Of a stretch of 64,000 nucleotides of DNA, positions 3,850 through 57,938 are shown piece after piece (the first letter of the stretch is position 1; every line of letters begins with the position of its first letter). The translations under genes were made by a program, and so were the position numbers. A model generated the notes under the pieces. It saw only the letters and a list, made by a program, of their open reading frames with translations. It was not told the DNA's origin and ran no database searches. Origin of the DNA: Perkinsus olseni (taxonomy: Eukaryota); the NCBI GenBank assembly GCA_013115125.1, contig JABANN010000012.1:62001-126000 (forward strand), read 5' to 3'.

Positions 3850-4640
3850 CAGAGACTGTGTGACTCGAGTAATGCGATCGATTGTCTCTGGGGATGTTGT
3901 TTGACGCAACAATTCCTGTAAAAGTCGGGACGGACCTTATGTGTGTATGGTGACGTGGATGTCGATTTTCCTGGCGCGTCGATCAATTGTTGCTCAGCCA
4001 CCAGCCGGTGCGATGATACGGGTCACACTGCGGCTGATACGAGGTTGCTTCATGGCTCAGGCGCATCAGCATATCATTCACGAAGTCTTCCTGCTACATA
4101 TCGTCTCGAGCCTCGAGACTCGAGGTGATGTTTTGGATGATACTGATCGCAAGTCGGAAGAACTGCCTCTGAAGGAGACAGCGCATTGTTGTCGGAGCCG
4201 TTGATTGGAGGTGAGAACACTTCTACAGGTCCACGGCATCTTCATTTACTATCTCCGTGTTCCGTGGCAGCGCATGCCGCTGGGGCCCACAGTCGATCTA
4301 CCCATACGCACGAGCAAGAGCTGAGAGGATAGCCCTGACGCTGGACAGTTCGCAGGAGACGCCGCGCGAACACGCGAGCGACGAGCATCATTTCCGCGCA
4401 TGTGAACGCCTCCTCGACAAAACGGTGAGAGTTCCGAAAGTTGAGAACCGATGTTACAAAGTACGAAGGAAAGTATTTCCTTGAGGCCAAGTGTCGTCTA
4501 CAAGCTGTATCGTGGCCAGGCGGGCTGAGGCAAAAGAATCCGATTTACGCTAGAATAATCAGTGCGATGTTTTGCACCCACGCGAAAATTGCAATGAACT
4601 CGATGTAGAGGGATTCGGCTCAGCCGAATCTGCTGCGACC
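3850..4640 (-). pseudogene. Decayed duplicate of the 3' half of the neighbouring TMEM184/OST-alpha gene
   Basis: Colinear similarity with the intact gene: 3901-3925 to 5111-5135, 4041-4100 to 5263-5330, 4281-4310 to 5519-5550, 4561-4610 to 5792-5845. Translation retains QEDFVND (intact gene QEDFLND) next to a TAG stop and a frameshift. Confidence 0.75.
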
Positions 4641-4846
4641 GGCTTGGGGACTCCCCGTCTTTCGAGGAGCTCTCGGGTCGCATGGTCTTCCTGCCGGCAC
4701 GCGCGATTCAGTAGAGAGTCTCCATCAGGTTCGTCATCAGCAGAGGTTTCTAGCGACGATGCCTAGGAGACTGCGGCTGCCCCCGCTGTTCGGGAGCACG
4801 AGACGACGTTCTCAGGATATAACCGCAGGGAATATGGAATATGACT

Positions 4847-4918
4847 GGGCTGTGCCGAGAATTGAACTCGGGACCTCTCGCACCCTAAGCGAGAATCATA
4901 CCACTAGACCACACAGCC
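4847..4918 (-). tRNA. tRNA-Pro (anticodon AGG), copy 2
   Basis: Identical to copy 1 except for G in the T-stem, which gives a fully paired CCGAG/CTCGG stem. Confidence 0.96.
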
Positions 4919-5050
4919 GATGAAACCAATAGTGATGTCCAGCCCTCTGCGATTGATTCCGAAGCGCAGTAGACAAATTTCCACCTTGTTACGCAACACA
5001 TGAGGTGCGCGGGACAACGCCGATGCAGACAGCTCTGAGCACACTCTATG

Positions 5051-6792: not shown

Positions 6793-6955
6793 GGTCAGGG
6801 AGTGCCACGGAGTAGAGGGAGCATTCAGTAAGTAAAGGGGCCTTAGAAGGACACGTCCATGGAGTTGCTAAGTCGCTCAGGATCCACGCTAATACCCGGG
6901 GGAACGGAACACGGAATTGTTGCTGAGATACTAGACAAATCAAAACGGGGCGGCG

Positions 6956-9900: not shown

Positions 9901-10221
9901 ACGGCGCATAAGAGTTGCTCACGCTGCAGCCACCCGAGTTCCGTTCATCGGTCAAACTTCTGCCTACCGGGGAGACGTCAAGACTGTCTACGCGAACCTG
10001 GAATAAGATCGCTACAGGGTTGTGAGGCATCACCCGCAGGAGAACTCGCAGCCCTGGTGCGATCCACTGTCCATACTGCTGATGAAGGATCAAGTATGGT
10101 TCCAGACAGAAAAAACGATGTCTCTTACTGTGCCTTCACCGGACAGCCTCGACTCTCGATCCTGCAAGTATCGCTCACTGTCCGCGATCGATGCCTCCAC
10201 TGCATCAAGAGTGGAAGACAT
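6956..10221 (-). CDS. Uncharacterised multi-exon protein with repeated (C/A/Y)TFxP motifs and charged coiled-coil spacers
   Basis: Exons carry EGYTFR, EATFTPSLNPQS, ECTFRPSVNPVS, DCTFRPELNPKS, ECTFTPRT, TVPQPFQF and GYSFRPATN. The probable start is MSSTLDAVEASIADSERY at 10221. Confidence 0.7.
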
Positions 10222-10549: not shown

Positions 10550-10623
10550 GCTGGAATGGTCTAGTTGGTTATGACGATCGCCTCACACGCGATAGGTCCC
10601 GAGTTCGACTCTCGGTTCCAGTA
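10550..10623 (+). tRNA. tRNA-Val (anticodon CAC)
   Basis: GCTGGAA TG GTC TAGTTGGTTAT GAC G ATCGC CTCACAC GCGAT AGGTC CCGAG TTCGACT CTCGG TTCCAGT A; all four stems pair. Confidence 0.95.
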
Positions 10624-11363
10624 TTTGTGTAAATCTTCCCCTAGATTCTTGCGCAATCTGTGCTCGTGGGTCACGAGTCGTGGCGGAGATCGCCTAGAAG
10701 AATCTATCAGCCAATTCCACGTTGCGAAGGACTTTTCTCTTCTCACAGTGATATGTATGCAGCAGCCTCTCTAGCCTCCCGAGAGTGTGTGACCTGGCGA
10801 CTCATCCGAACAATTTCTGGTTCCTTACATGCACTCGTTCAGGCTCCAAGGAACTCAGAAAATATTCTATCCATGAAACTTGTTTGGGATAATTCATATT
10901 CGCAGACTTCGTCCTGGGTGAGTCAACTGAGATGTACACCCGGTTCCTTCCCTCTAGCATTTATTAGTGAAGTAAGAAAAGTGTTATATGTCTGCTTCCC
11001 TGTCACGGCCCCAACGGCAGCCGGGTTGACCCGCTCGGTGTGAACCTGAAGTCTTGGATCTGCTGCTAATACCTGCCCGGAGTCCAGCTCGCTGGCCACT
11101 GGCTTCTGAGCGAATAGCTGCGACTCGGCACCCACCTTGAAAGCGCAGCCCAACTCATTATCGAAAGGGCCGTCGACATCGATGGCAACAATATGGCGAT
11201 CAATCAACGATGAGTTAGCCACCAGTCGAGCCCGCACTCGAGAAAATCCGAGGGACGGAGCAGCGATCTGAAGTGTCAGAAAAGTTTTTTGGACCTTTCG
11301 AGTCGAAAGTTTCGACCGCACTTTTTCACTCGGTTCAAGGGGCCGAGTGATCGAAATTACTAA

Positions 11364-11436
11364 GCGGCTTTGGCGCAGTAGGTAGCGCGTAGGTCTCATA
11401 ATCCTAAGGTCGCGAGTTCGATCCTCGCAGGCCGCA
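11364..11436 (+). tRNA. Elongator tRNA-Met (anticodon CAT)
   Basis: GCGGCTT TG GCGC AGTAGGTA GCGC G TAGGT CTCATAA TCCTA AGGTC GCGAG TTCGATC CTCGC AGGCCGC A. G1:C72, the TTC T-loop and the U31:U39 apposition are elongator rather than initiator features. Confidence 0.95.
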
Positions 11437-11699
11437 CTTATTCGTCCGGTTCACACGGTTCGCTCGTCAGCCATTACCTACCGCAGCGCATGCCATGGTA
11501 TTCACGTTGTTGGGTGCTAGCGGGCACAACGGCCGAACGTCGCCCTCGTAAATTACTACGTCCTCGCTTGGATCTGAGTAGCGGGTTTTCAGGTTACAGC
11601 GATTCAAACTTCAGTATCAGCAGGCGCCGAGAGAGAGTTGATCCTCACTTTGACGTCCATCCATTAGCGACGCCATCTTATTCATCAACGATCCAGTCA

Positions 11700-17790: not shown

Positions 17791-18579
17791 TAGAGTTCGT
17801 GAATACTTGAGTCATTATTAAGTGCCAGTCAGTTGCTGGCCACAGGATGTCCTTTATGCGGAAGTTCATTGTTAGTAGATTTCATACTTTATTCGGTGAC
17901 AGCGGAGTCACGTTGTGCTTCAGCCGTTGAGGTGGTGATCGTTCCTTATGTCGTGTATCAATTTACAGTTCCCGCTTGTGATGTTACACAAGTCTCAGAG
18001 AATCTCTGCTGTTGTGTTACAAAGTTGGCCAGGATATCACGACGCGTGATCACGCTATTCGCGCGGCAAAAAATTCTACGTAGAATTGCCAAATTATCCT
18101 CAACAGTTACCAAAGAGATCTTGCAGGGGCAGCAGCTATGCTACATCCTGTAGCCTACAGGCAACCTCAGCATTCACTCGAACGCCAGTTGGCAGCTGGA
18201 CAGAGAGCGGCCAGTGGGTTTTGTCCATAGAGGGGATTGTCCCCGAGCTGCCGGATCCCTTGATGATCGAAGTTCATTGGTCCCTGCCGGGCCCAGAGCT
18301 CGCCAGTGTAGAGTCTGTAGTTTATTGACCTGACCGAGGTAGGCCAACTAAACAAGTATACTTATATCAAACGTTGAATTGCAGCGGAATCACACACTGT
18401 CGCACTTCAAAAGCAACCAAGCAGTGTAATTCAAGGCAGACGAGCAATCTTACAAATGTTAGAAGAATAGCGTCGCAGACAACTTGATCTCCTCGCGACA
18501 GAGGAGACCTCAGAAACATCCAAAATCAATCATAGTGGCACGTAACCGCGTGGATCAACCAATCGTGAAGAGTGGGTAG

Positions 18580-21500
18580 CTATTCCATCGCCCGGTCGGC
18601 AGGCAGCTGGGTGGTACCACTAGCACACGTGGGAGCAGACACCTCCGTAACCGAACCGCTGGTTGGATTGATGGCGAGGACAGACTCTGCGGACGATCGC
18701 CCTCCGCTGCCTTCACTAACCACGCCAGTGGGCACTCTATGGTCCTGTGGGCCTACCTTAGACCCTTCAAGCCCCACTGCGCTGGTAGGACTGCTCTCCA
18801 CTGCAGGTTCGGGAGTCTCTGTGCCATCGCCGGATCCTCGGCTAGCAGGTGCGCCTTCCGACTGTGAAGGCTGTACGGGTGGAGGACGATTGTCCAGAGG
18901 GCCAAGTTGATCAGGATAGGGTGGTTGATCATTCCTGTAGGCACCATATCCTGTCAGATCGGCTCCACCAATGGCAATGAGAGTCTCTGGCGATCGCAGT
19001 ATCTTCACCAGGCAGTTGTACATAACAAACTCTCGGCGCATGTCGCCGTAAACTTGCGCGATCGCGACACCACTGATGAGATCGAGCAGCTCTTGAGGGT
19101 TGGGGATTTCCGAATAAATGACTTTTTGCGAGGCGTCTTGAAACATAACACGGATGAACTGACCGATGGCATAGATAATAGTCACGTAGAAGCCCAAGAT
19201 TCCAAGAGATAAGAAGCCGCCAACCTCGTTACCGCCAAACACCTTGTCTAGAATCAGAGTGAAGCTGACACCATTGACTCCAGTGGAGACACCATTGGAG
19301 CACACCACCCCACCTTGACCGGGACAGGAATCTTCTTCAGAACTGCCCATGAGAGCGAACTGACTCCCCTGTGAACCCGTGATGGAGGAGACGAGCGAGT
19401 ACCACATAGTTGGGTCTTTGACGTAGTCGTTCCAGCTGGCCTTGTTAGTAGTTGCGATATGGATGACACTGGGCCCAAAGTTAGGGAACAGCACACTTGC
19501 CGAAGGATTCTGGATCAGAGTACTGACACTCTTTCGGAAGTCATCAAACTGGAGTGGATACTTACCCAGGGAGCAGTCCTTGCACAGGTCACCGGTAGTC
19601 CGCACCACACTAGCATCACATCCGCACAGGCTCATATCGTAGTCCCCAGAGGAGGTATAGCCAACACTATTAGAACGAGACCATGACACTGCCAGCTTGA
19701 GCTCGAGTCGCAAGTTCTCATCCAAAACATCAGGCCCAATCAGATCAGTGATAGAGCGGATTCTATTGGGACTAGCTTGAATAACCGTCGAACTGCCGAG
19801 CGGAAAAGTGATGTTCTGCACGGCCGCATCGGTACTAACACCAGGCTGCGTTTGCAGGAACTTCGTTGCGGCAGAGCCGGTGATCTGCACTGAGTGAAGG
19901 ATCGGCGACGAGTAGAGATCTTGGAATATGTAGTAGGGCGACTCACAGTCGCTGCCACAAGACTGGATATTCAAAGATACTTTCATAGACGCCTCGGTGA
20001 CATAGGCGTTCTTCGAGAAGGGTGAGAAAGTTGAGAATATCAGAATGGGCAGGACGATGATGATGACCAGGATGACTGTGAGGCAGCAGCCTGACATGCA
20101 CTTCTCCCACCAGAACTTCTTGCGCTCCGCGGGCCAGTTCTCCCGACGGTCGTCCATCTCCTGTGACACGTCCCAGAAGTTGTTATGGGCATCTTCTAGA
20201 AGAAAATACTGGGATAGGTCCAGTGAGGTCGGAGTCACTGCCCAGTCGACAGTTGTGCGGACCTCCTGGAGGAAGGGAATTACCTTGTAGGCAGAAAAGG
20301 CGTATCCAGCAAAGGTGTTCCGCACTGCATTCCACGACTTGGCTGGCCGCAGTGAGTCACGCCATACACGAGGAACACCGTCTCGCAGCTGCTTAAGTGA
20401 CACCACCAAGTACAGTACGAAGACCATGTAATAGATGGACATGGCCCAGTTCTGAATGACTGGGGTGAACGCGGAAGCGTCTCCGTGGGGGACCAGATTG
20501 ACCAGGATGGTTATGTGCAGAGCAAGCACTATAGCCAATAGCAATATGACACGGAAGATGAACCACCCCATGGCAACTCTCGTCGTTTTCCTTCTCACGG
20601 ACATTCGACAAGATTCGACGGTCGCCGTTCCACTCGCAGCGTCATCCGCTGTGAACGGAGTATCGGCCTGTGACAGATCGACATCAATGGTGCCTGTGTC
20701 GTTCATACAGCTGGCACGGTAGTAAGCCCGATCCAACACGATCAACACCAGATGGCTTATCATCAGCACAGCTAGGGATGCTGAGAATTTATTCGACTTG
20801 AGAACCCCGAGGACATCCTCGCCGCTGTCTCCAGACATCTGATGATAGGTAAGGATACACCAAATCCAAAGGAAGAGAGCCAACAGGAAAAGAGTGATGT
20901 AATAGTCGTGGCCAACCTTGTGGGCGGCAAAGGGATCCAAGTAGTAGTAAATTCTACCCAACCAGTCGGTGGAAGCACTCCCTAGTGAGTGACCCTCCTC
21001 AGTATGAGGGAACCTCAGGGTCTCATTGTTAGCGTATACCCTCTGGGAGAGCCACCGCATTCTGCGGTATCCATCGAGGAGCCTGCTGACACTGGCAAGG
21101 TCTTCTGACCAAGCAGGGACACAGCGGCCCTGTACATCCTCGTTGCACATGTATCGTGATGTAGCATAGCGAGAGAGTTCAGCATACCCGACTGAGATTA
21201 AGGGCATACCGTAAATGTCGACGAAGGACGCTATCGTTGTCGATACAGCGCTCGCGTAGTCAGAGTCGCTGGCGCTGGATGAACTGATGCTCTGATAGAC
21301 CGTATTCCCTCTGACTAGCATAGTATTCGCTATAGAGTCAGATTGGCCACCGGTTTCCGAGCTGTGTTCTGATAGCGGATCCCTCTCGGTTTCGACATCA
21401 TCCAATGAGTCCGAGCTCAGAAGTCCCAAACCCTCACGCGGCACCAGGATCGCCGCCTGCTCGTCACGAGGGTCGGCAACCTGGACGAACTCCCAGAGGC

Positions 21501-40900: not shown

Positions 40901-43900
40901 TCGTCCATACGGTGAACTCTATGGGCAACTTCTGTATACTACTCGGTCTGATGATGTTCGTCTTCACGCTGATGGGCATGAGCCTCTTCGCAACGAAGCT
41001 CAGGATGGATGATGAGGGGAGGAAGATACCTGACGATCTGCTGGCACCCTGGCCGAAGAATCAGTGTCCTGGTAAGGACATCAGCGCTGTGTTGGTGATG
41101 GAACTCTATTACCGAATCAGGAGGCGGCTACGACTGCGTCCCTCGATCGCACTTCGACACTCTGCTGTGGTCCTTCATTACGGTCTTCCAGATCCTCACA
41201 GGTGGGACTACCTTTCTTCTCTTCCCTTCCTGCTTCTAGGGTACCTCCCCTTTGTCAGGCGAGAACTGGAACACTGTGATGTACGACGCAGTGCTGGCTG
41301 TGGGCTGGGGCGCGGTATTATTCTTCATCGCTCTCGTTATTTTCGGCCAGAGTGTTATACTCAATCTCTTCCTAGCTATCCTGATGAGCAAGTTCGAGGA
41401 GAGCTCCGCGGCCATCAGGTGAGGAGCATGCCGTCAGGCGGCAGGAGAGCTCTCCCTTAGGGAACAGGAGGTGGCGAGAGCTAGATCTCGGTCCCAGCTA
41501 TCAGCGCTACTGCGGGAGAGGAAGAAGATGGCTGGTGGGCTCCGTTTTGATGAGGTCCTCAGCCCGGACTCTCCACAGGATAGCCCGTCGCCGAGGTGAG
41601 CGTGCCTAAGACGTCTGTAGAAAAGATAACGACGACTGGCCTTCAGGACAGTGGCAGTCCGCAGCTTTGTAGGGAAGCATGCTGAGGGTAGTCCGACCTA
41701 CAAGGAAGTCTTGGAGGCCTCGAAGGCTGACGATCCCGATGGTGGTGGTGGTGGTGGTGGTGGTGGTGGTGGTGCTGAACCCCGCGCAGTGGAAGAGCCA
41801 GTACAACCAGGCATGATCCGCCATGGCAACAGCGTAGTTGTATCGGATGCTCCGACGGTCCTTAGAACAACCGAGGAATCCGCGGACAGCTTACGTTCGT
41901 CCGAGGAGCAGTCTAGTAGCGGTCCACAGCAGCTGCGTACCCGGGAGCCCTGGCCGAGGGACCACTCCATGCTGCTGTTCAGTCGTGAGAGCCCAGTGCG
42001 GCAGGTGTGCAGTAGGATCGCCGAGGACCCCCTCTTCGACAACTTCATCATAGCCTGTATTGCGATATCCTCAGCCTTCATGGCCTTGGACAGCCCTCTG
42101 CTGGACCCCGGCTCAGGCTTGGCCCAGTTCCTTGATATTATGAATACCCTATTCTCTCTTATCTTTCTGGTAGAGATGCTCATCAAGTGGGTTGCCTTCG
42201 GCGTGGTCTTCAACAAAGGGGCCTACTGGCGCAATTCCTGGAACGTCCTCGATGGTATCGTGGTCATCGTCTCCATGGTGGACCTCCTACCTATGCTGCC
42301 TGACATATCGGTACTCAAGACCCTGAGGATGCTCCGAGCCTTGAGGCCCCTCAGGGTCATCTCCCGGAACCCCAACCTTCGTTTGGTCGTCAACACGCTA
42401 TTCAGGCTCCTACCGGAGCTGTGCAACTTGCTTATCGTCGGAGGCCTTTTCTTCCTTATCTTCGGTCTCTTTGGGCTCTCCTACTTCAAGGGGAAGTTCT
42501 ACACCTGCCAGGTGAGCTGCCTTCGAGTTTACCAGTCATTCTATTCTGTCCCAGTTGAGACGCCTCCGTCATCAGGTTGGCGACCCGAGTACGATGGAGG
42601 TTATTGAGTGGCAGTATGAAGATCGCCAGAGTGTTCTGACCACTCCGATGTGCCTCAACCAGGCCACTGGGAACCTCCTGCTCCCCAGCGTAGGTCCACC
42701 ACTGCCGCGACCCTCCGAGGCTGTGCACTTCAGGGGTCGTTGGGCTCCTCCGCAGACAGTACTGCATCATCATCGCTCTGCCCGGACGGCATGCCTTGGT
42801 CCAGAACCACCCCCGATACGCCAGTCTGTGTGGCCTCTTGTGCTTCGGGAGCCGACAGGTGAAGCCTCACGAGCGCAGCTGATCGGATAGGTTGACGTAT
42901 CAGGTCGGATGCCTGCCCGCCTCCTCTGTCCCTCGACACTTACCCCGACATCTGCAGCCTCCATCCTGACTCCGTTCGTCCACCGAGGTAGCGTCTCTGA
43001 CACGGTACCCTTGTGATACACCACGCCTCCTGCTTTAGCCCTTCCTTCGACGGGCCCAGTCAGCTACGGACCGCTGCGAACATCGGAGGGCCTGAGTGGC
43101 ATGCTTCGATGGACAAGAGTGTGATGCCGTGTGACAGATGCAGCGCCCGGTTCTGCACGGGCTCGCTCCAGCCCAGCGAGGAAAGAGTAGGGTTCCTTGC
43201 ATGTTGCCGTATCTTGATATCGTGTGTGGTGCCAGAGTGAGGCCTGCCGGTACGAGTGTGAGAATCATCCCTATTACTGCGCGGATGTCTGCACTGGGGA
43301 CGCCTTGGGAGGTAAGGCCCTGGGCTATCACGAGCCAGCGACCCCCGTTGAGGTTCTACTCCCGCGTCTCGTGAGAATCAATACGGTGGTCCCTCAGGTG
43401 GCGACTGTTCGGCGTGTCTGGAGGCCTGTGTATCGGCGTGTGAATGCCCACACTTCTGCAAACCACTCATAAAAGATGCCGCTAACTGTGTGGAACAGGG
43501 TGGACAGTGGTAAGGCGCACCGTCGTGCTTCGCTCCGCTTCTTCCTATTTGCCATTTTTATAAGCGCGGGAATTTATGAGGAGGCCTGATGTATCCACTT
43601 CTGTTTCAGGTTGAATCTACATCAACATTTCGATAACATCGCGGTCTCCATGATGACGCTGTTCGAGATCTCGACCACCGAAGGTACCCAGCCTCCCTGT
43701 CTCTTCTAAGGGGGCAACAGTCCCGGTCTTTCCTTCCGTTGTTGCAGGTTGGGTTGATGTGATGTATGCCGGTACTGATGCCACCGAAGTCTATGGGCAG
43801 CCGCAGAGGGACCATGCTGAGCTCTGGGGGCTCTTCTTCGTTTTGTTCATGCTGGTGAGCAGCTCGCTGGCCTCTACATCACTACGGCGATGGTCCTTCA

Positions 43901-46635
43901 GATCGGCTCCTTCTTCATCCTGAATCTTTGCGTGGGCGTTATTGTCGATAACTTCAATAAGATCAAGGCACAAGGGCAGTCGCTATTCCTTACACAAACG
44001 CAGCAGAAGTGGATCGAGCTTCAGAAGCAGCTGTACACTAAAAAGATATTCTTGGAGTTCGCGCATGTCAAGGTGCGCCTCATCAACACTTTCATCACCA
44101 TCGTCATTATCACCATCGTCATTATCACTCTCATCATTATCATTATTCACTCGACGACAGCCCTCCTCATTGTCGTCATTCACTACGACAGTATCATCTC
44201 ATCACTCCCATCGCCATCCTAAAGTCCGATTTCACCTCAGGACCTACCGATAAGCCGAAGGAAGATGTACTTCTTCTGCTCCAGCTCCAGGTTTGAAACT
44301 TTCATCATGGTCTGCATTCTTCTGAACACAGCGGTGACTGGCATGAAGGTGATGAGCCCAAGAGAAATAGCTTGCTCTGTGGATGATTCGACGATCATAG
44401 ATATTCCCACCCCCTTCGGATGCCTACAAGGCTACACTCACAGTCCTCAACTACATCTTTGCCTTCATCTTCACGGTGGAGGCCGCGCTGAAGCTGTACG
44501 CCACACGACGGTGGTACTTCTATGTAAGGCTGGGAGTGAGGATGCCTGTCCGATGATAATGGTGCTCGTTCAGGATGCCTGGAACTGCTTCGATTTCGTC
44601 TGTGTTGTCGCCACGGCCGCTGGGATTTTGGTAGATCTCTTGTCTACGGTCACGATCGGCACGCTGATGAGCGCCATTAGGATATTCCGCATAGCAAGGT
44701 CGGTCCCAGTATCAAACAAGTTCCCAAGACGGCTTCCTGTTTGCAGGCTCTTCCGCCTAGTGCGGTTTGCCAAAGGTCTTAACCAGCTGTTTATAGCCTT
44801 CGTTCTCTCAATACCGAAGCTCTTCAACGTCGCCATACTCCTCCTGCTGCTTCTTTTCCTCTTCACAGTAGTACCCATCTGTAGTGCTGCTCTCGACCAT
44901 TTATGAATATACTAATACAAGCCGTGATGGTTGCTGATTTAGGTACTTGGTGTTCGACTCTTCGGAGCCACCCAGTTTTCCGGTAGTCACGACGACCATG
45001 CAAATTTCCGCAACTTCTATCGGGGCTTCATGACCCTCGTGCGTTGCATGACAGGCGAGGTAGTGCGCGGCTGCTATCTTGATAGCGGACTGAGCCTCAG
45101 GGTTGGAACGAGATCATGCACAGTCTGGCCAAGGACTCCGAGTTCTTTGGTCTGGTCCTGCATCGACCCTGTGTTGACAGCTTCGATATCACAGTAGAAA
45201 ACTACCCAGAGGTGGGTCGGCACGCTCGAGAGTCTAACTGCGAGCGTCCAATTCCTGTTAGTTGCAACAGAAGTGCCTGATAGATCACCCAGTGCAGTGT
45301 GGGTCGCCAGTGTCCTTTATGTTCTTCATCGCATACACCTGCATCATCACTTTTGTCGTGCTTAATTTGGTGATAGCAGTCATTCTGGAAGGCTTCGAAG
45401 ATTCTACCAAGTCGGCTGAGAAGGTCCGAGGTTCAATTCCTTCCAGGGTCATTTTGAGTATTTTCCTCAGGACGTGGTTAACAAGTGCATAGACGTATGG
45501 AAGCAGTTCGATCCTCACTACGATATGGAGATCCCGATCGACTCAGCGGTCAGTCCCATCAGCTCCCTCCAGCCGATCACCTTCTGCGTGCTCAGATCGT
45601 GTTCATGGAGACTGTGAACTCTGAAGTGATGCGAGACAACCCAGAGCTTCGGAAGAGGATGATGAAGTACCGCCTCGAGCGGGGAGGGGGTACCCTTTAC
45701 CGCTCCATCCCGTTGAAGCAAGCCACCTTCTTACGGATGGAGATCAACTCCAATAAGAAGGTGCACGTCATGCCGCATCATCGCCGTTGTTGTGAACCTC
45801 CAGCTGGCCAGGTCCACTTCCTCAATGCTGTGTCATCGGCACTTCGCATGATGATGGTGCGGGACAACGCCTCCTTGATGGAAGAAGTAGGCTACCATGG
45901 GACTCTTCAGCATCTGTCGGGGAGGCGGTGTTTGTGTGCAATGAGAGTAATGCCGTCGGCTCAGATCGTGTCAATAGAGACGGGGCAGCATGCTTCGAGA
46001 GAGACACAGCAAATAGCGAAGGTTCGCGAGATGGTCATGACGCAGGCTAACGTGGTAGGGAGGAGGACGTTCATTGCCGTCGCGCCCACTGCCTTTACGA
46101 GCTGTCATGGGCAAGATCATTGCAGTAGGGATTTCGTTTATCAGACGGAGAAACGAGGCTCCTTCGTAGTGGAGGGCGCCCTGCCACCAAAAAAGAGTGT
46201 ATTTGCGAGCATCTTCCGCTTGAGACGTGAGGGTGCTCCGCTCGAACCCATGCTCCTGAGCGGGGGACTCTTTTCCTTCAGAGCCGCCTGCTCCAGCAGG
46301 GTCTGTGGATGAGGTCTCGGACGAGCCTTCAGAGCCCACCGGTGAGTCACCACAGTTCTTGTAGAGACACACGAGCGTTCGTCCCGGGGTTCAGGACCGA
46401 GGGCTGGCGAAGTTGACGGAGAGATTTCTGGTACGCAACTTGTGCAGCATGTAGCGGCAGCGAGGATACAGCATGCAATGAGAGAGTGAGATGAAGCTCT
46501 TTGACCAGCAAGAATTATACTGATCATTCCAGGTGCATGAGGTCCAGGCGAAGGCAAAGTGGACACAGTTGCCAAGCAGGAGGCTGCCCTATACAGCAGG
46601 ACGAGAGGATGCCCGCAGCGGGGTGATCACGCTAG
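37999..46635 (+). CDS. Four-domain voltage-gated Ca2+ channel alpha-1 subunit (EEEE filter), more than 25 exons
   Basis: S4 segments [45 protein letters not shown] and [14 protein letters not shown]. Pore loops ITLEGW, LTGENW, STTEGW and MTGEGW. The 3' end is approximate (46312-46635). Confidence 0.92.
39765..39835 (-). pseudogene. Degenerate tRNA-derived element in a Ca-channel intron
   Basis: The minus strand has A-box-like AGCCTCAGTTGAAGAGAGC and B-box GGGTTCGAATCC at tRNA-like spacing, but the acceptor and T stems do not pair well. Confidence 0.55.
41741..41773 (+). repeat. (GGT)11 coding microsatellite, poly-Gly in the channel II-III linker
   Basis: Direct reading of ggtggtggt..., translated as a Gly run in ORF 41651..42607. 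Confidence 0.95.
44084..44150 (+). repeat. Imperfect (ATC/ATT/ACC)n low-complexity tract in an enlarged intron
   Basis: catcaccatcgtcattatcaccatcgtcattatcactctcatcattatcattattcac lies between the donor at ~44072 and the acceptor at ~44240. Confidence 0.8.
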
Positions 46636-47250: not shown

Positions 47251-49521
47251 ATGAGAGCCTTGCCTCTGACAACACTCTTCACGATCCCGTGCATCGTGCT
47301 GTTGCTCAGCTTAGCAGGCTGTAGCAGCAATGGAGGTGCAACTACTACGGCCCCAGCGACGAGCACTGCACCAACCACCGCTCCAGTAGTGACCACTACA
47401 CCCATCCCTCAGGGGGCCGTGGCGTAAGAGAACACTGCCTGGTCGAGTTGGAGCCGCCGTCCTTAGGTACGTCACCTCCGAGAGTGGTGGAAATATGACG
47501 CGCCGTTCTGTTACTGTTGATAATGGACCGGCAACTACCTACCACGTTAGATTGAACTCTGGTAAGCCTACAGGGAATCGTCCTGTGGGAGAGGGCGCTG
47601 GGAGCGCCAAACACGGCCCGTGTGGCGATCATTCAATGATGTTGTGAAGTTGGGGTCTGCTTGGGTGGATTTCTATCTGCCTAATTCTCAGCGTCGTTGA
47701 ACCATCGGCCAGTTGAAGGGTTCGGAGGTGCCTTCACAGCGGCATCTGCTGTCAATTACAAGAAGTTGAGTGATGAAGATAAACGCAGATTCATTGAGTT
47801 GTGAGTATCTGGTTACTTCGGTCATTCTAAGCATCCTTTGAGTAGATACTTCGGTCAGAGCGGCCTACGCTACACTATGGGTAGAATACCAATCAACTCG
47901 TGTGATTTTAGTCCGTACACTTACAACTTCGACAACGTCTCTGATGATTTCACTTTGGAACACTTCGATGATTCTTTGAAGGGAGATGAAGACACCGGGA
48001 TGATTCAACTCCTTCACGACGCCTTGGCGGAGACACCACTGAAATTATTCGGTAATCCATCCCATGCTTGGTGGAGAATCGGTACGTCTCACGTGTGTAG
48101 GAAGCCCGTGGTCCCCACCGTACTGGATGAAGGCTGGTAATCACCCGATGGTCGGCAGCCCCAATCCCTGCCTCAAGCAGGATAAGAAATATAAACAAGT
48201 CTGGGCCGACTACTTCGTCAAATGGGTATGCGCTGTTACGTTTCCGTTCCCGCACTTTCCCTTCTCCCCATCAGATTCAGTCATACGAGAAGAAGAACAT
48301 TTCCATTTGGGGCGTCACACAGCAGAATGAGCCAATGTAAGTCATCGCTCTCCTATACCATGAGGGCCTCATGGTGAGGCAGCTCTTAGGGGTGTACACT
48401 CATTCACTCAGGTTTTATTCGAACGCGCGATGGGAGGCTTGCTCATACGACCCCGCCAATCAGACCGAGTTCATCAGGGACTACTTAGGACCTACCCTGA
48501 ACAAAACTTTCGGCGATAGAGTTAAACTCATGTACATGGACTTCGTCAGAAATCTTCTCATGGAGGTCTCTGACGTCCTCCTACAGGACAGCAAGGCTGC
48601 ACAGTGAGTCTTTCCTCGTCAGGGCTGGATAAAGATGGGCATTGGCCATCATCGCAGGCACGTCTACGGTGCCGGGGTGCATTGGTACGGTTTGAATAGC
48701 ATCGATACTCTCGAGGCGTTCAAGACCAAATACGGCAGTAAATATGCTGTTTGGGGGACTGAAGCAAGTAGGCAGGGTTTTCAGCTGGCAATTTCACAAT
48801 GAAGATACATGACCTACTCAGGCACCTGCTACCCGGAGGACCGTTTTTTCAATACACCATGGAAGAGAGCTGCCCGTTATGTTCACGGTGTGATTGTAGA
48901 CTTCGTACACGGTGGAGGAACTGGCTGGGTGGACTGGAATCTTCTTCTCGACGAGATAGCAGCGCAAGACGTACGTCCGCTCATCCTTATGACTGACTTC
49001 CTATAGCGATCGCCACACTTTTGGTTAATCATTGTCAGAATCGCGGGGGTCCGAATCACGCTGACAACTATTGCTTTGCACACATTCACATCAACAACGC
49101 GAGTCAGCTTGTGGTACAGAAGATGTCCGTACCGGTCTCTCCGGTATCGTTGTATCAGATACACCCGTCTTACTACACCTTTGGGCACATCACCAAGTTT
49201 GTCGCTCCTGGCGCTAGAATGGTTACGTCTCTGAATGTGTCTAAGTCTGAACCAAGCTCAATCTTCACTATCGATACCCTAGAGGCCATGGCCTTCGTGA
49301 ATGAAGCCAAAACAGAGTTGGAAGTTATCGTAAGCCAATTGAACGAGTGCCCCTCCATCTGCGGTTCCCAATCCCAGGTGCTCAGCAGTCAGGAGGACGA
49401 CATATCCGATCTGATCACCGAGGTCCAACTGCCAGGCGGGCAGTATCAGACCATTCACGTTGGTAAAGTCTCCGGCTACAGTGTTACCACCGTTCTACTC
49501 CCCGGAACTTTCTCGGGCTGA
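47251..49521 (+). CDS. Glycoside hydrolase family 30 (glucosylceramidase-like), copy 1, with signal peptide
   Basis: VEGFGGAFT, MGRIPINSCDFS, SPWSPPYWMK, WGVTQQNEP (acid/base Glu), GVHWYG, GTEA (nucleophile Glu), GWVDWNLLLD, GGPNH and YYTFGHITKF. Confidence 0.92.
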
Positions 49522-51022
49522 GATTTTTTCTCCACCACTACCCCTGTTCGCTTCATGCAGGGGAGTACTGAACTTTTGCTTTCATTGCTCCCGATACACC
49601 ATATTGAGTGTTTCGAGCCTTTGTCGACCGAAGATGGTCAATTTCTATCACACATCATACCAAAGAATCGTGTTTCGTTGCACAGTATACCTTAACCATG
49701 GGCATTGCCTGCCCCTTCAGTATATCTCATGCGATGTCTGGTGGCGTGAATGATTTTAACTGGATAATGCTCGCTCGGCTATCTGCAAATGACTCGAAGG
49801 GAAATTCTCAGACTGAGAATCTCAGTCATGAGTAACACCTTTCAAGTAGCCAATGCCAAAAATTACAAAGGCGACCTTAGCAATTTCTGGCGTTCGTTCC
49901 TCACAACAAAAAGGGATACGCTTATTGATGCAGAGAAACCTACTCTGATTCTGATTATCGACCCGAGTTCCACGTGTCAAAACTCCGAACTGCGAAGTGC
50001 TGGCGTGATGATGGTGGTCGAGGGAGTGAGGCGCTTCGCAACAGTTTAGGAAGCGCATTGCCAATATAGGTGCCTCACCTCGAGGTCTCAAGTGAAACTG
50101 AGCTCCTGTTTCTGAGGACGCAGGTGACATCCTCAGTGGCTCGACGCCGACAGTTGGCCGGCAGCACAGCTATGCAGTGTTTAATGCACCCTGTAGGAAC
50201 AACCGACCCCAGATCGAGCAATCGCCTACCCCTCTCCAAGGCGGGTTAGCTGTGCGGTATAGCCTGTAGCCGAGTAGATCTGGATGCCACATGAAGTTTT
50301 GAAGGCCACGAAGCGGAAGCGAAGTGCTAGGAGGTGCAAATCCGCCCGATTTCTTCATCTGTCTCCGTTGCTGTCGGCTCATCGCAGCTCCCTTCGATTG
50401 CTGCTGCCCGTTATCCTTCTTGCCACCTTCAGGACTTGAAGTTCTGGTCCTTCGGTGGGCTTTACTGGTTCAGTTGACGCATATCAACTTCTTTCGTGTC
50501 TCAGCCCAGGACTTGCCGCCATACTCGGGAATGTCGCAGCATAAGCTCTCTCGTAGGTACCCTCAGTGGTCGTACGGCTGAGCTGAAGAAGAAGAAAAAC
50601 GTTAAAGTGAAATTGAATCGGATACATGAGTTCGGTGAGACTGCGCAGAGATCTGCTTCACTGAAGATGCGCTATTATACCTTCATTCATCGGACGAAGC
50701 AGGTATAGAGCTGAAATTCGAGCAGGAGTTACGGGGCTTGTTCCCCTCAACTGGGACTGCGCCACGAAATTACACGCCTACGCATGAGCCGACCCTGAGG
50801 TCCAGGTTTGGAAAGTATTCCGAACCATCCCCGGTAGTGGGTATGCGGAGGAATTGGTCATCCTGAGTGCTTCTGGCGTGATGCGCGGCGTCTGTCTACG
50901 GTAAAAACGAGGATCGTAGGTGGCCAGACGGTGCGAATTCTGAGCTGTCCGGGTCCGTAGACATCATTAACAAAATCATTCCCGATGAAAATCTGAGTGG
51001 TATGAAAATACCGTCGCCACTA

Positions 51023-51095
51023 GCGACTCGCCAGGAATCGAACTCGGGTCCCTTACCATCCACGGTATCCTTGGAATGGACTGGTCACCAGTCAC
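51023..51095 (-). other. tRNA-like 3' half (B-box) in TE-like DNA; second copy at ~54889-54961
   Basis: The minus strand reads GGGACCCGAGTTCGATTCCTGGCGAGTCGC; the 5' half is scrambled by palindromes. Confidence 0.45.
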
Positions 51096-51264
51096 TGGTG
51101 CGCTGCGTGTAGGATCCAAATCGCCGCCAATCCTAACGGCAACAAGTGCCAGGCTTATGAATTATATCAAGGACTCCCCTGAGCAACCACTAGGTCCCGT
51201 TAAGAAGTTGTGGTGGAGATGGTCGCTTCTTCTAAGAAGCGATTTCTATCTTCCCAATCCTCAG

Positions 51265-53080
51265 GCTCGTTGAACCATCGACCAGTTGAGGGGTTCGGAG
51301 GGGCCTTCACAGCGGCATCTGCTGTGAATTACAAGAAGTTGGGTGATGAAGATAAACGCAAGTTCATCGAGTTGTGAGTATCTGGTTACTTTGGTCATTC
51401 TGGGCATCCTTTGAGTAGATACTTCGGTCGAAGTGGCCTACTCTACACTATGGGTAGAATACCAATCAACTCCTGTGACTTTAGTCCGTACACTTACAAC
51501 TTCGACAACGTCTCTGATGATTTCACTTTGGAACACTTCGATGATTCTTTGAAGGGAGATGAAGACACCGGGATGATCCAACTTATCCACGACGCCTTGG
51601 CGGAGACAAAACTGAAATTATTTGGTAATCCATCCCATGGTCCGTGGAGAATCGGTACGTCTCACTTGTGTAGGAACCCCGTGGTCCCCCCCGTACTGGA
51701 TGAAGGCTGGTAATCACCCGATGGTCGGCAGTCCTAATCCATGCCTCAAGCAGGATAAGAAATATAAACAAGCCTGGGCCGACTACTTCGTCAAGTGGGT
51801 ATGCGCTGTTACGTTTCCGTTCCCGCATTTTCCATTCTCCCCATCAGATTCAGTCATACGAGAAGAAGAATATCTCCATTTGGGGCGTCACACAGCAGAA
51901 TGAGCCCATGTAAGTCATCGCTCGTCTATACCATTGGGCAGCTCCCAGGGGTGTACACTCATTCACTCAGGTTTTATTCGAACACGCGATGGGAGGCTTG
52001 CTCATACGACCCCGCCAATCAGACCGAGTTCATCAGGGACTACTTAGGACCTACCCTGAAAAAAGCTTTCGGCGATAGAGTTAAACTTATGTACATGGAC
52101 TATATCAGAAATCTTCTCATGGAGGTCTCCGACGTCCTCCTACAGGACAGCAAGGCCGCACAGTGAGTTCCTCTGGTCAGGGTTGGATAAGGATGGGGCA
52201 TTGGCCATCATCGCAGGTACGTCTACGGTGCCGGGGTGCATTGGTACGGTTTGAATAGCATCGATACTCTTGAGGCGTTCAAGACCAAATACGGCAGTCA
52301 ATATGCTGTTTGGGGGACCGAAGCAAGTAGGCAGGGTTTTCAGCTGGCCATTTCACAATGAAGATACATGACCTACTCAGGCACCTGCTACCCGGAGGAC
52401 CGTTTTTTCAATACACCATGGAAGAGAGCTGCCCGTTATGTTCACGGTGTGATTGTAGACTTCGTACACGGTGGAGGAACTGGCTGGGTGGACTGGAATC
52501 TTCTTCTCGACGAGATAGCAGCGCAAGACGTACGTCCGCTCATCCTTATGACTGACTTCCTATAGCGATCGCCTCACTTCTGGTTAATCATTGTCAGAAT
52601 CGCGGGGGTCCGAATCACGCTGACAACTATTGCTTTGCACACATCCACATTGACAACGCGAGTCAGCTTGTGGTACAGAAGATGTCCGTACCGGTCTCTC
52701 CGGTATTGTGGTATCAGGTACACCCGTCTTACTACACCTTTGGGCACATCACCAAGTTTGTCGCTCCCGGTGCTAGAATGGTTACGTCTATGAATGTGTC
52801 TAAGTCTGAACCAAGCTCAATCTTCACTATCGATACCCTAGAGGCCATGGCCTTCGTGAATGAAGCCAAAACAGAGTTGGAAGTTATCGTAAGCCAATTG
52901 AACGAGTGCCCCTCCCTCTACGGTTGCCAATCCCAGGTGCTCAGCAGTCAGGAGGACGACATAACCGATCTGATCATCGAGGTCCAACTGCCAGGCGGGC
53001 AGTATCAGACCATTCACGTTGGTAAAGTCCCCGGCTACAGTGTTACCACCGTTCTACTCCCCGGAACTTTCTCGGGCTGA
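51265..53080 (+). pseudogene. GH30 copy 2, 5'-truncated (lacks exons 1-2 and the signal peptide); remaining exons look intact
   Basis: Similarity to copies 1 and 3 begins about 30 nt before the intron-2 acceptor (51232-51264). Upstream sequence belongs to the duplicated TE-like flank. Confidence 0.75.
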
Positions 53081-55399
53081 GATTCTTCCTCCACCACTAC
53101 TCCTGTTCGCTTCATGCGGGGGAGTACTGAACTTTTGCTTTCATTGCTCCCGATACACCATATTGAGTGTTTCGAGCCTTTGTCGACCGAAGATGGTCAA
53201 TTTCTATCACACATCATACCAAAGAATCGTGTTTCGTTGCACAGTATACCTTAACCATGGGTATTGCCTCCCCCTTCAGTATATCTCATGCGATGTCTGG
53301 TGGCGTGAATGATTTTAACTGGATAATGCTCGCTCGGCTATCTGCAAATGACTCGAAGGGAGATTCTCAGACTGAGAATCTCAGTCATGAGTAACACCTT
53401 TCAAGTAGCCAATGCCAAAAATTACAAAGGCGACCTTAGCATTTCTGGCGTTCGTTCCTCACAACAAAAAGGGATACGCTTATTGATGCGGAGAAACCTA
53501 CTCTGATTCCGATTATCGACCCGAGTTCCACGTTTCAAAACTCCGAACTGCGAAGTGATGATGGTGGTCGAGGGAGTGAGGCGCTTCGCAACAGTTTAGG
53601 AAGCGCATTGCCAATATAGGTGCCTCACCTCGAGGTCTCAAGTGAAACTGAGCCCCTGTTTCTGAGGACGCAGGTGACATCCTCAGTGACTCGACGCCGA
53701 CAGTTGGCCGGCAGCACAGCTACGCAGTGTTTAATGCACCCTGTAGGAACAACCGACCCCAGATCGAGCAATCGCCTACCCCTCTCCAAGGCGGGTTAGC
53801 TGTGCGGTATAGCCTGTAGCCGAGTAGATCTCGATGCCACATGAAGTTTTGGAGGGCACGAAGCGGAAGCGAAGTGCTAGGAGGTGCAAATCCGCCCGAT
53901 TTCTTCATCTGTCTCCGTTGCTGTCGGCTCATCGCAGCTCCCTTCGATTGCTGCTGCCCGTTATTCTTCTTGCCACCTTCAGGACCTGAAGTTCAGGTCC
54001 TTCGGTGGGCTTTACTGGTTCAGCTGATGCGTATCAACTTCGTTCGTGTCTCAGCCCAGGACTTGCCGCCATACTCGGGAATGTAGCAGCATAAGCTCTC
54101 TCGTAGGTACCCTCAGTGGTCGTACGGCTGAGCTGAAGAAGAAGAAAAACGTTAAAGTGAAATTGAATCGGATACATGAGTTCGGTGAGACTGCGCAGAG
54201 ATCTGCTTCACTGAAGATGCGCTATTATACCTTCATTCATCGGGCGAAGCAGGTATAGAGCTGAAATTCGAGCAGGAGTTACGGGGCTTGTTCCCCTCAA
54301 CTGGGACTGCGCCACGAAATTACACGCCTACGCATGAGCCGACCCTGAGGTCCACGTTTGGAAAGTATTCCGAACCATCCCCGGTAGTGGGTATGCGGAG
54401 GAATTGGTCATCCTGAGTGAGGAGAGAGCGCGTTTGCTCACCCCGTGGAACGTAGCGGAGGGGGAGTAGGAGGAGGAGGGAAGATTGGAAATCTGTCACT
54501 GTACGGAAACGCTCGCGGCAGAGACAGCCGCGGCAGTGCTTTGTGAAATTGTACAAGCTCAGGGAGGAGGCATGCTGGCTTTTTCTACCAGTCCAACGTC
54601 GAGAACTTCCTTTGAGGCATGTTGATGCGCATGAGGCGCTCTGCAGCCCTGCAGTGACAGTCACTGCGGTGACTGAGTCACTGAGTGACTGCAGGGCAGT
54701 CGTTGCCTTTCGTGTTACGGTAGCATTGTTACCTGCTTCTGGTGAGATGAGCGGCGTCTGTCTACGGTAAAAACGAGGATCGTAGGTTGCCAGACGGTGC
54801 GAATTCCGAGCTGTCCGGGTCCGTAGACATCATTAACAAAATCATTCCCGATGAAAATCTGAGTGGTATGAAAATACCGTCGCCACTGGCGACTCGCCAG
54901 GAATCGAACTCGGGTCCCTTACCATTCACGGTATCCTTGAAATGGACTGGTCACCAGTCACTGGTGCGCTGCGTGTAGGATCCAAATCGCCGCCAATCCT
55001 AAGTTAGGATTCCTAACGGCAACAAGTGCCAGGCGTATGAATTATATCAAGGACTCCCCTGACTCAGGGGCCGTGAGCAACCACTTGGTCCGGTTAAGAA
55101 GTTGTGGTGGAGATGAGAGTTTCAAACCACTCGGGAAAAGCCCCCTGTCCAGTGGGTGGTGGTGGAGTAACAGTATCAGATCGAGCTTCCATCTAAAATC
55201 CCCACAGATCCTGCATACCGACAAGCGTCGGGATACGCAGTCTTCACCGGATGACGAATGAGCGAGTCGGTGGCTGCGATCTATCAGAACTTTTCATAGA
55301 AGTTCTCATAGATCTCTTGCCCGCGGGGGGAAGCTCCTCACCGTGAGGAGTTTCAACCGTATCATTTGCCCGCTGCTGCGATTTACAGCCCAGCAACGG

Positions 55400-56830
55400 C
55401 ATTATCATAGCAACAGGAGGGAGCTGGCAGCCTGTTGTGAAGCGATTCAAGCCGCAGCCGACGTCATCAGTCACCTTGCCAGCTAAGTCGCGGGCTCCTT
55501 ACCACCGATTGAGATACCAGTTGTGTCGGATAACCGGCCGACAGTGGCCTGGTTAGCAGGAAGTGGCGTGTTTTCCAAGTCAGCTCTCGAGAGGCGAGCG
55601 GCATTGAGGACCCTGAACGCTTTGAAAGACGAAGTGGACTACCTCAGAAGCATTGGTATGGTATCGATATCGCACATAAGCGGGAGCGACAATTCGGAGG
55701 TGGACGAACTCAGCCGACTTTTCGAATAAGGCTAGAGTCTGGCTCCCGAATGACTTTGGGCCAAAGTCTTCGGCTGACGCTCTCTTGGGAGGCACCGACG
55801 AGAAACAGGATCTGTCGAGCTTTCCCGATGTGTTCGATTCAGGAGCGGTCCAAGGACCCGGACCGGGTCACCCGGTCTATCATGGATATTTGAAGAAGAC
55901 AGTACCATCACGCAAGATACCTTGGACGTCTTCTGGGGACTACCGGAGATACCCCGTTAACGCGAATATTTTGAAGAAAATGCTCAAGTCTTCGCCGCTG
56001 CCAATCGCTTCGAGGATCGTCTCTGCATAATCGAAACGCTTTGTGGAAATGCATACGATGCCTGCACGGTTTTGGTGGATTTCCAATTCTTAAGGAAGGT
56101 TTTCCGAGCAATGCACCCTCAACGCAGGGAGCAAGAACTACTCCCAAGTTAGGGAGGGGCGGAGAGACAAGCCCAAGAAAATTGGACCTGTTTTCATCGT
56201 GCATTACAGAGCGATTCGGCTGTGACAGTGTGGCCCGCGGGACCTTATTGTACCGGCTCGGATGGGATAATATGTTTCCGGAATGGCCAAGCCGACGGCA
56301 CCATCGACCTTTTGCCAGTTGTCCCGAAAAGACCGGGATCGTGCGCGGCCTATAGGAAGAAGGTTCTCAGGGACGCCCACCGGGCGACGGTGGCGCATGT
56401 ATACAATCAATACTATATGCTTGAGATACGCGTCGAGGCGAAAAGGCTGGTGAAGTATTGTTATTGCCGCCAGACCTTGCGCGCCCGCAGACAGTGGTCC
56501 CAGTTATCTGGAGTTCCGGACAAGTCCAGCGCGGTCCGAGCCGAGCCCCACACCGAAGTTTCTTGACGTTGGGTGAGTTGAGAGGATCTGGAGGACCGAT
56601 GAAAATCCTCACCGTCTACTGCCTTGGCACTTCTCATTCTACTTGGGTTCTCTGCTCTGAGCGCATCGCCGACGTGCTGCACGCTCTCGTGAGGGTGCAG
56701 CAACAAGAAGGAGGACTCCGAGTGATAAGAACCGACCGTGCAGCTTATTTTAGAAGTAATCTATTCGCTCAAGAGGCAGCCCGCCTCCTGCACGCCACCG
56801 TAATACGGGTGGCCCAGCGGGGAAGAATGT
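55400..56830 (+). mobile_element. Decayed LTR-retrotransposon pol (RNase H plus integrase)
   Basis: RNase H-like SDNRPTVAWL...ISHISGSDNSEVDELSR, integrase zinc-finger-like VLRDAH...AKRLVKYCYCRQTLRA, and catalytic-core-like ILTVYCLGT...GGLRVIRTDRAAYF. Multiple stops and frameshifts. Confidence 0.75.
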
Positions 56831-57938
56831 TATTCTTTCCCAGCCGAGACTGAGTGTCCTTCCGAAGCCCGAAAGTGGCATCGCGCCTATAAAAGCTCAG
56901 CTTACACTTTCTCAAAAACGGGAAGTAGCCTACTTCAAGTAGCGGCTGCCGCGCGCTTCCAGTATTTATGTGGATTCCGAGCTCGAGCCGCTCGAGCTGA
57001 TGATTGTGAGATAAGTTTGAGATGTATGATGATGACACGGGTGTGGAAACTGTTGTACCGCATTGTTCTCGTCCGTAGGCCGCACATCTGCGATTATTTT
57101 TTCTCATCTAGGAGTGTGGGTGCAGTTCGATCGGTGGATAGTGCCGAGTAGACTCGGCTGGCCCGATGAGAACTGCCCCGTCGTAGAGCGGTTACTCTTT
57201 GCCCAAGAGAGGGATTGTCGCGTTGAGACAATAGGGTGGGAACAACAGCAGCACGAGAAGGTTTTCATGTGAAAGCCACGATCTCAGTACACGGGAAGCA
57301 GAGTCTTAGCAGATCATCTGCACATCTGCCGCAGATGTAGAAGCACAGGATGACAAATGTCAGCCCCACTGGGGCTGGCAGAACAAGAGGGGATCCACCA
57401 TGGCGCAAACATGACGAACCTATCCACTACGCGATTAGTCAGTCCTTCCACCAGGAGGATGAGGGGCCGGCGGCTACGATGACAGCAGCACGCGACGCAT
57501 GACAGCCCATCTCTGCCACACCTGTCTCCACCGCACAGACCATCAAATCCCCGGCTCGTCACTAAAACGTGGCGCAAGACGTGCCCTATGAGTGCCTCCA
57601 ATACAACCGAGACTCTTAAGGATGGCCAGCGATCGATCATCACTAGCGTAATAACAAGAGACGCGCACATACTGCACGCGTGCATCAGCACAGCTCATTG
57701 GTCATGGGGAGATCTCGTGCCTTCGTCAATTGCTTTCACGCATGAGTCAATTGCCCTTGGAGATGCGACCTTGAACGGTATATACCTCTAGAGTCTAGAC
57801 GACTCAGCTAGTGCGGAGTTCGCGTGTCTACGGTTGTGCATTCAGTCTGCCTTGACGGTCTTCCCCTCAGCGACTTGAACATACGGGGTTGTATATCAGG
57901 GAAAAGTCCCACATAGTATTAGTTTATCTGTTGCTATC

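Follow-up and report, generated by a model that had tools for sequence, protein, structure and literature searches.

The transposases of hAT, Transib and MULE elements form hairpins on the DNA flanking the element, and these hairpins are opened by host enzymes (PMC5499845). In the account of Ac/Ds given in PMC5873905, the footprint takes the form of a palindrome centred on a single base, complementary to the one that had lain next to the element. The target-site duplications of Hermes are 8 bp long, and it prefers targets of the form nTnnnnAn (PMC10368747). Here we report on base-centred palindromes, which we regard as candidate excision footprints of such an element, in 64 kb of the Perkinsus olseni genome (contig JABANN010000012.1). 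This whole stretch is referred to below as the window, and it was analysed together with contigs of four public sequencing runs (X1, X6, X8 and X10) and the literature. Perkinsus is an alveolate, parasitic on molluscs. A preliminary description of the window had listed perfect inverted repeats with a 1-nt spacer, often chained, and had ascribed them to a recurrent, geometry-specific process of mutation or break repair, such as inter-strand template switching or hairpin opening of the hAT or RAG kind. Our analysis establishes that the repeating unit is a 22-nt structure composed of the first seven nucleotides of an 8-bp site T, the reverse complement of T, and the last seven nucleotides of T, written below as T[1-7]-rc(T)-T[2-8].

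All the palindromes of the preliminary description were recovered exactly where they had been placed, including the one at 39787-39809, which contains a single mismatch, as had been recorded. Across the whole window, perfect inverted repeats with a spacer of 1 nt numbered 50 with arms of at least 6 nt, 35 with arms of at least 7 nt and 17 with arms of at least 8 nt. The corresponding means in 200 dinucleotide-preserving shuffles were 17.2, 4.6 and 1.3, with maxima of 27, 11 and 5, so that the earlier estimate of about 4 chance occurrences for 7-nt arms was correct. Arms of 6 to 11 nt occurred 15, 18, 12, 3, 1 and 1 times, respectively; the excess starts from 7 nt, and the arm length is mostly exactly 7 nt. 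Palindromes with spacers of 0, 2, 4 and 6 were at chance level, and for spacer 0 with arms of at least 7 nt we observed 3 against 4.0 in the shuffles. An apparent enrichment of all the odd spacers from 3 to 13 was rejected as a nesting artefact, in which a spacer-1 palindrome with arms of n nucleotides is counted again as a spacer-3 palindrome with arms of n-1. Once inward extension of the spacer was disallowed, spacer 1 stood at 35, and every other spacer from 0 to 15 at between 1 and 8. The spike at spacer 1, which the preliminary description had proposed to look for against other spacers and shuffled sequence, is thus present. Eleven chained pairs were found in which both arms measured at least 6 nt, and all had a centre-to-centre distance of 7 nt. 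Among other distances, none occurred at 1-6 or 9-14, and one each was seen at 8, 15, 16 and 17; none of the 200 shuffles contained a chain at distance 7. Certain chains are paralogous copies of the same event and hence not independent (49805 = 53364, 50427 = 53977, 51013 = 54879 and 51079 = 54945), and about 15 independent chain events remain after removal of the duplicates.

The 22-nt structure is equivalent to two palindromes with 7-nt arms and 1-nt centres, placed 7 nt apart. When the window was scanned with this 8-bp model, it matched 10 loci perfectly, and the number rose to 16 when one of the 14 pairs was allowed to be broken and to 19 when two were, where 0.0002, 0.01 and 0.2 were expected; 100 shuffles gave a mean of 0.02 at up to one mismatch. 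The same window scan returned no locus at up to one mismatch for the 7-bp and 9-bp versions of the model, and none for even-centred versions. Neither the 6-bp nor the 7-bp model had a perfect match in the window, and at up to one mismatch the 6-bp model had 3 matches against 1.9 expected and the 7-bp model none. The even-centred 5-bp model likewise had no perfect match in the window, and an excess of an odd-centred 5-bp zigzag was discarded as not significant (4 perfect matches, against a shuffle mean of 1.1 and a maximum of 5). Where the hairpin-derived tract is shorter, the products were at chance level (1 match with 0.98 expected, and 1 with 0.24 expected), and the perfect matches consist solely of the fully annealed product T[1-7]-rc(T)-T[2-8]. 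Six palindromes that at first sight stand alone, at 4621, 18154, 48366, 55063, 55760 and 56929, are in fact chains carrying one substitution. The 15 inferred sites T are mutually unrelated in sequence.

If the 22-nt unit derives from an 8-bp site, what does that site look like without the insertion? Duplications within the window provide the comparison. A GH30 (glucosylceramidase-like) region exists in three copies, A (47668-50869), B (51241-54419) and C (58369-60238); A and B are arranged in tandem and share 95.7% identity, while C is 84-90% identical. A second duplicated pair consists of the flanks 50868-51221 (copy 1) and 54734-55115 (copy 2), with 93% identity. Three footprints differ between paralogues, each by exactly +14 nt. 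In the pairwise alignment of the flanks, copy 2 exceeds copy 1 by two separate 14-nt insertions, at 54996 and 55056. At these sites the empty copy 1 carries exactly the predicted T, ATCCTAAC at 51130-51137 and CCCCTGAG at 51176-51183, and copy 2 carries T[1-7], rc(T) and T[2-8], the structure at 55056 having one substitution. The third footprint, 48359-48380 in GH30 copy A, adds 14 nt that copies B (51932-51939) and C lack; the intron end in copy C is backed by an X10 piece beginning at 59084. In all three comparisons, the two centre bases are complementary to the terminal bases of the site in the empty paralogue, one to the first and the other to the last, and the exact 8-bp T is found in the empty paralogue in two of the three. 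The conversion of an 8-bp site into the 22-nt product is therefore directly seen in the paralogues of the window. Four footprints are common to the duplicated copies, and the members of the 50427/53977 and 51013/54879 pairs differ by one or two point substitutions, which indicates that the scars decay by point substitution. As judged from the duplications, the activity spans time, with four events placed before the A/B duplication and three after it.

Next to these insertions, the paralogues differ in two other ways. Around 49997-50004, copy A has 8 nt (GTGCTGGC) that are absent from copy B, in flanks that follow no clear pattern; this indel could be another type of target-duplication remnant. 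At 54420-54733, copy B contains a 314-nt segment, including the palindrome cluster at 54651-54690, for which copy A has no counterpart at the homologous junction (50868/50869). This segment was considered as an insertion with an 8-bp duplication and rejected, as it is flanked by a 2-bp TG repeat instead.

The preliminary description had allowed for the palindromes being an artefact of assembly. An X1 Logan contig of 3424 nt, from another study, spans 54973-58396 with no differences and no gaps, and an X6 contig spans 55036-58396, again with no differences and no gaps; the palindromes of these stretches are thus reproduced exactly. A 14-nt omission at 54997 in X6 and X10 was considered as an allele and rejected: it represents the paralogous copy 1, carrying the diagnostic bases of that copy at 54926 and 54940. 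In the divergent run X8, 163 nt of 56333-56497 are replaced by 12 letters (one contig, depth 21), and these, together with the right flank, form a new base-centred palindrome with 9-nt arms, suggesting that palindrome-forming events differ between strains. The X8 joints 55261/55341 and 61393/61459 and an 8-nt gap at 61750 yielded no interpretable footprint. In all DNA runs, the contig depth over 56660-56979 and 60820-61139 is 2- to 10-fold above that of the neighbouring bins, and loose contig ends are present on both sides (56807-56884 and 60953-60995); the two stretches are probably short dispersed repeats.

The footprints are distributed along the window as follows. Between both tRNA-Pro genes lies a perfect one, with none of its 14 pairs broken, at 4104-4125 (T = TCTCGAGG), and 4614-4635 (TTCGGCTG) has one mismatch. 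At 10663-10684 (CTCGTGGC), directly downstream of tRNA-Val, two broken pairs result from one substitution in the middle inverted copy, and a perfect footprint is situated upstream of tRNA-Met at 11295-11316 (CTTTCGAC). The footprint at 18140-18161 (GCTACAGG, one mismatch) stands immediately outside the Piezo open reading frame (ORF), and that at 48359-48380 (CATGAGGC, one mismatch), found in GH30 copy A only, is in an intron (GTAAGT...CAG). The perfect footprint at 49805-49826 (TTCTCAGT) is the same event as 53364-53385 and predates the A/B duplication; the latter copy is also perfect, its first palindrome being lengthened to 11-nt arms by one flank difference. Two further perfect footprints have slightly decayed paralogues: 53977-53998 (CTTCAGGT) corresponds to 50427-50448, with 2 substitutions (3 broken pairs), and 54879-54900 (GTCGCCAG) to 51013-51034, with one substitution. 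The perfect footprint at 54945-54966 (GACTGGTG) has an identical paralogue at 51079-51100. The two flank insertions with empty paralogous sites occupy 54996-55017 (perfect) and 55056-55077 (one mismatch), and they are followed by 55753-55774 (ACTTTGGC, one mismatch), 55855-55876 (GACCCGGT, perfect) and 56922-56943 (GAAGTAGG, one mismatch).

This distribution is uneven. Nine of the 15 events fall within 48-56 kb, and seven chain footprints, plus several other palindromes, lie in 54.9-56.9 kb, a clustering that would fit a hot spot of insertion or an element that hops locally. Exons were represented by nine stop-free ORFs of at least 200 amino acids, which cover 27% of the window. Not one of the 35 palindromes or of the 15 events falls within them, the chance of this outcome for the events being 0.0085. 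The earlier proposal that the palindromes are purged from exons is thereby supported, with modest strength.

We consider it likely that the palindromes were left by the excision of a cut-and-paste DNA transposon with 8-bp target-site duplications and hairpin-capped donor flanks, that is, with hAT-type chemistry. What we infer from the product is the transposon, together with its superfamily and the route of repair. The element would insert at the 8-bp site T, giving L-T-[element]-T-R, where L and R are the flanks. At both ends, the transposase would then nick one nucleotide into the flank, and the 3'-OH of the flank would attack the opposite strand. This would leave a flank hairpin, tipped by the complement of the T base adjoining the element, that base itself departing with the element. 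Host nucleases would open both hairpins away from the tip, releasing single-stranded hairpin-derived tails that are complementary over the inverted T, because both flanks carry T. The tails would anneal in register, flaps would be trimmed and the gap sealed. Provided that the tails overlap, the product would be L-T[1-7]-rc(T)-T[2-8]-R, in which the 8 nt have become 22, a gain of 14 nt, regardless of where the hairpins open; the uniformity of the product would follow, since annealing of overlapping tails gives the same 22 nt in each case. The scars would later decay by point substitution, and would not be tolerated in exons. The presence of T on both flanks implies, from the structure of the product, that T must first have been duplicated by an integration with an 8-bp stagger. 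Hairpin opening in its hAT form thus fits the 8-bp site, the 7-nt arms, the complement centre, the 7-nt distance and the gain of 14 nt. The recurrent, geometry-specific break repair of the preliminary description is thus supported in part: its geometry stands, and a transposon footprint is to be preferred to a mutational process independent of a transposon, given that the 22-nt unit derives from a target-site duplication.

Several observations weigh against this explanation. The window yielded no element that combines terminal inverted repeats with an exact 8-bp duplication: a search for exact 8-bp direct repeats flanking inverted termini (at least 12 of 14 matches, 40-6000 bp apart) returned 0 matches. 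Pfam transposase families matched none of 19 proteins scanned singly and none of the 122 ORFs of at least 100 amino acids, so that the designation of 54.8-57.4 kb as transposable-element DNA in the preliminary description could not be upheld. No allele occupied by an element was found among the listed contig differences of the four runs over 54420-64000. At 48359, T departs from the empty paralogues at 2 of 8 positions, and the centre of the X8 junction palindrome is the unchanged reference base, not its complement. Of the 15 inferred sites, 3 follow the Hermes preference nTnnnnAn, with 7 having T at the second position and 4 having A at the seventh; members of the superfamily do not all share this preference. 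Of the one-nucleotide offset of the initial hAT nick, reportedly established by Zhou and colleagues in 2004, it is the consequence that is documented in PMC5873905. Finally, classical hAT footprints are heterogeneous (PMC5873905), and the uniform product seen here needs an assumed repair route.

Could the same footprint logic apply to a different element? A non-hAT transposon with 8-bp duplications, such as Merlin, a Muta1-like MULE, a relative of Dada or an unclassified family, is possible, albeit a good deal less probable; this alternative is nested in the explanation we favour, in that the name of the element changes and the mechanism stays. Several footprints lie near tRNA genes, and our literature search found no paper naming hAT in Perkinsus; both points speak for the alternative. 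We know of no documentation of hairpin chemistry for Merlin. Merlin-related transposase ORFs are reported from Perkinsus marinus, with Merlin duplications of 8-9 bp (PMC8101967), and so is Dada from the same species, one family being apparently flanked by 8 bp (PMC3706591). The Dada duplications are otherwise of 6-7 bp, at strict tRNA or small nuclear RNA (snRNA) gene targets (PMC3706591), whereas in the window the 7-bp model has no matches and the sites are unrelated. Muta1 combines 8-9-bp duplications with flank hairpins, but more than 90% of its excisions in yeast are precise (PMC5499845), and the complement-centred palindrome is documented for Ac/Ds (PMC5873905).

The remaining alternatives dispense with the transposon. 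Replication or repair errors at breaks or forks, by inter-strand template switching or polymerase-theta-type snap-back, are known to create inverted repeats; the palindrome arms share no common sequence, and the X8 junction, with its 163-nt loss and 12-nt inverted insert, resembles templated end joining. Such processes would be expected to produce variable arms and spacers, whereas only spacer 1, distance 7 and an 8-bp unit are observed. Template switching, the first mechanism named in the preliminary description, predicts neither the fixed 8-bp unit nor the complement rule, and the triplicated site, the complemented junction bases and the constant gain of 14 nt are equally unpredicted. A snap-back hairpin with a 1-nt loop would moreover be sterically implausible, which would not hold for a hairpin formed by transesterification on duplex DNA. 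We therefore regard an error of this kind as improbable. Marginally less probable still is the action, in the absence of a mobile element, of a hairpin-forming nuclease of the host such as a domesticated transposase. It would account for about 15 scars in 64 kb devoid of an element and for the strong clustering of 9 of the 15 events in 48-56 kb, and domesticated hairpin-making hAT transposases do exist, Kat1 being cited in the reference list of PMC10368747. The site is present three times in each scar, though, and a single cleavage of an unduplicated site cannot place T on both flanks. Chance, or an artefact of assembly or sequencing, we hold to be next to negligible. Palindromes do disturb assemblers as a general caution, and Logan contigs often end at them, but no shuffle reached the observed counts, independent runs reproduce the sequence exactly, and the paralogous footprints bear independent substitutions.

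Apart from the 22-nt chains, the window contains a number of other base-centred palindromes. Two with a common arm sequence lie 15 nt apart at 57309-57338 (T about GGCAGATG). Here both hairpin-derived tracts would have been retained and joined without annealing, common arms being what such tracts should show. A cluster of three palindromes with a GTGAC/GTCAC core, at 54651-54690, possibly reflects repeated events at one site. The palindrome at 55334-55350 has 8-nt arms and is outside any recognisable 22-nt chain, and further non-chain cases are found at 36292-36306, 56980-56998, 57361-57377 and 58336-58350. Non-chain palindromes also occur at 39787-39809, already mentioned, and at 29774-29790, which is AT-rich and may be due to chance. 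Motifs resembling the T-arm of a tRNA (GGATTCGAACC and GGAATCGAACTCGGG) adjoin palindromes at 39775-39790 and 54900-54920, and no tRNA was recovered at either place. A tRNA at 54.8-55.1 kb was considered and rejected: Rfam was negative on 50800-51300, and ARAGORN was negative on both the raw sequences and those in which the scars had been collapsed in silico. Among the longest inverted repeats of the window no convincing element was found. One of them, at 32506-32667, is imperfect, with 46-nt arms that are 78% complementary and 70 nt apart, and has no obvious 8-bp duplication. The stretch it encloses resembles 61377-61458, as judged by eye and not by alignment, and run X8 lacks 65 nt at 61394-61458, with GGA in their place. 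The two loci could represent a small mobile or intron-like unit.

In its gene content, the window is characterised by long ORFs and very short introns. The Pfam families detected are Piezo, glycosyltransferase 2, an ion-transport channel, GH30, polyprenyl synthetase, SKIP/SNW and a few weak others. The Piezo-type channel is encoded by a single uninterrupted ORF of 2511 amino acids on the minus strand (18580-26115, Pfam), which over the searched region shares 100% identity with a protein of Perkinsus olseni and 83% with one of P. chesapeaki. An ion-transport channel gene of the voltage-gated-like type occupies 40498-46312 on the plus strand and has multiple exons. The tRNA genes, for Pro (3641-3712), Pro (4847-4918), Val (10550-10623) and Met (11364-11437), are all within the first 12 kb, where four footprints are interspersed among them. 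Run X10 resembles RNA, its contigs being joined at GT..AG, and most of 55060-57940 is without X10 coverage. In 58547-64000 the X10 contig joints, GT..AG on the plus strand and CT..AC on the minus strand, skip 41-82 nt, and in one case 223; introns in this region are therefore very short. The joints delimit a minus-strand gene at about 61644-64000, and the X10 contigs also show GH30 copy C to be transcribed and spliced.

What would such footprints mean for the biology of Perkinsus, whose parasitism of clams and oysters is of commercial importance? If the density of the window held throughout the genome, the number of scars would be of the order of ten thousand or higher, making them a leading class of non-coding indels. 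What had been described as a mutational signature becomes a searchable 22-nt pattern, marking past excisions even where no transposon remains. At such a density throughout the genome, the scars would also be a readable fossil record of transposition, and they might reflect missing or weak Artemis or classical end-joining in this lineage. In Perkinsus they could be used for counting and dating transposition, for locating insertion hot spots, for explaining 14-bp indels between strains, paralogues or haplotypes, and for flagging pseudogenisation. The near-uniform product would be a natural read-out of the repair of hairpin-capped double-strand breaks in this lineage, with a bearing on the outcomes of genome editing. 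It is tempting to speculate, tentatively, that Perkinsus resolves transposase hairpin ends by one deterministic route, with opening far from the tip followed by tail annealing, so that every excision becomes the same 14-bp insertion.

Several known systems can be set beside these scars. RAG and Transib nick exactly at the border of the element, which leads to even-centred palindromes, and Transib duplications are of 5 bp. In the window, both even-centred palindromes and 5-bp models are at chance, and hairpin opening of the RAG form, the other variant raised in the preliminary description, is accordingly disfavoured. The resemblance lies in the opening of a flank hairpin off-centre by a host nuclease, with palindromic addition as the result, in V(D)J coding joints and Transib (PMC5499845). 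Template-switch mutations and polymerase-theta insertions are similar in placing inverted copies of adjacent sequence in a single mutational step, and differ from the window in that their unit length is not fixed, the target site is not triplicated and the complement rule does not apply at the centres. Dada and Merlin are DNA transposons of the sister species P. marinus with duplications near 8 bp (PMC3706591, PMC8101967). Dada, unlike the putative element considered here, is specific to tRNA and snRNA genes, with 6-7-bp duplications (PMC3706591), and the Merlin copies of P. marinus lack recognisable ends (PMC8101967); the available portions of the two P. marinus reports describe no excision footprints (PMC3706591, PMC8101967). 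A literature search confined to article text brought up no account of palindromes or footprints of this kind in Perkinsus, and no paper describing the exact T-rc(T)-T product.

The closest likeness is to the footprints of Ac/Ds in plants, Saccharomyces cerevisiae and Candida albicans, which are complement-centred palindromic insertions with the 8-bp duplication on both sides, joined through microhomology, and with arms of up to 20 nt in budding yeast (PMC5873905). The data for Candida differ from ours in their diversity, comprising 28 footprint types among 128 events, mostly with hairpin-derived tracts of 0-3 nt (PMC5873905). The recognisable Perkinsus scars represent essentially one product, and they are natural, fixed and genome-resident, not experimental revertants, the element that made them being inferred. 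The chemistry is known from hAT elements, and our findings are an extension of it and not a new principle; the uniform scar, the near-exclusive single product and the density of about 15 events in 64 kb appear to be new for this lineage.

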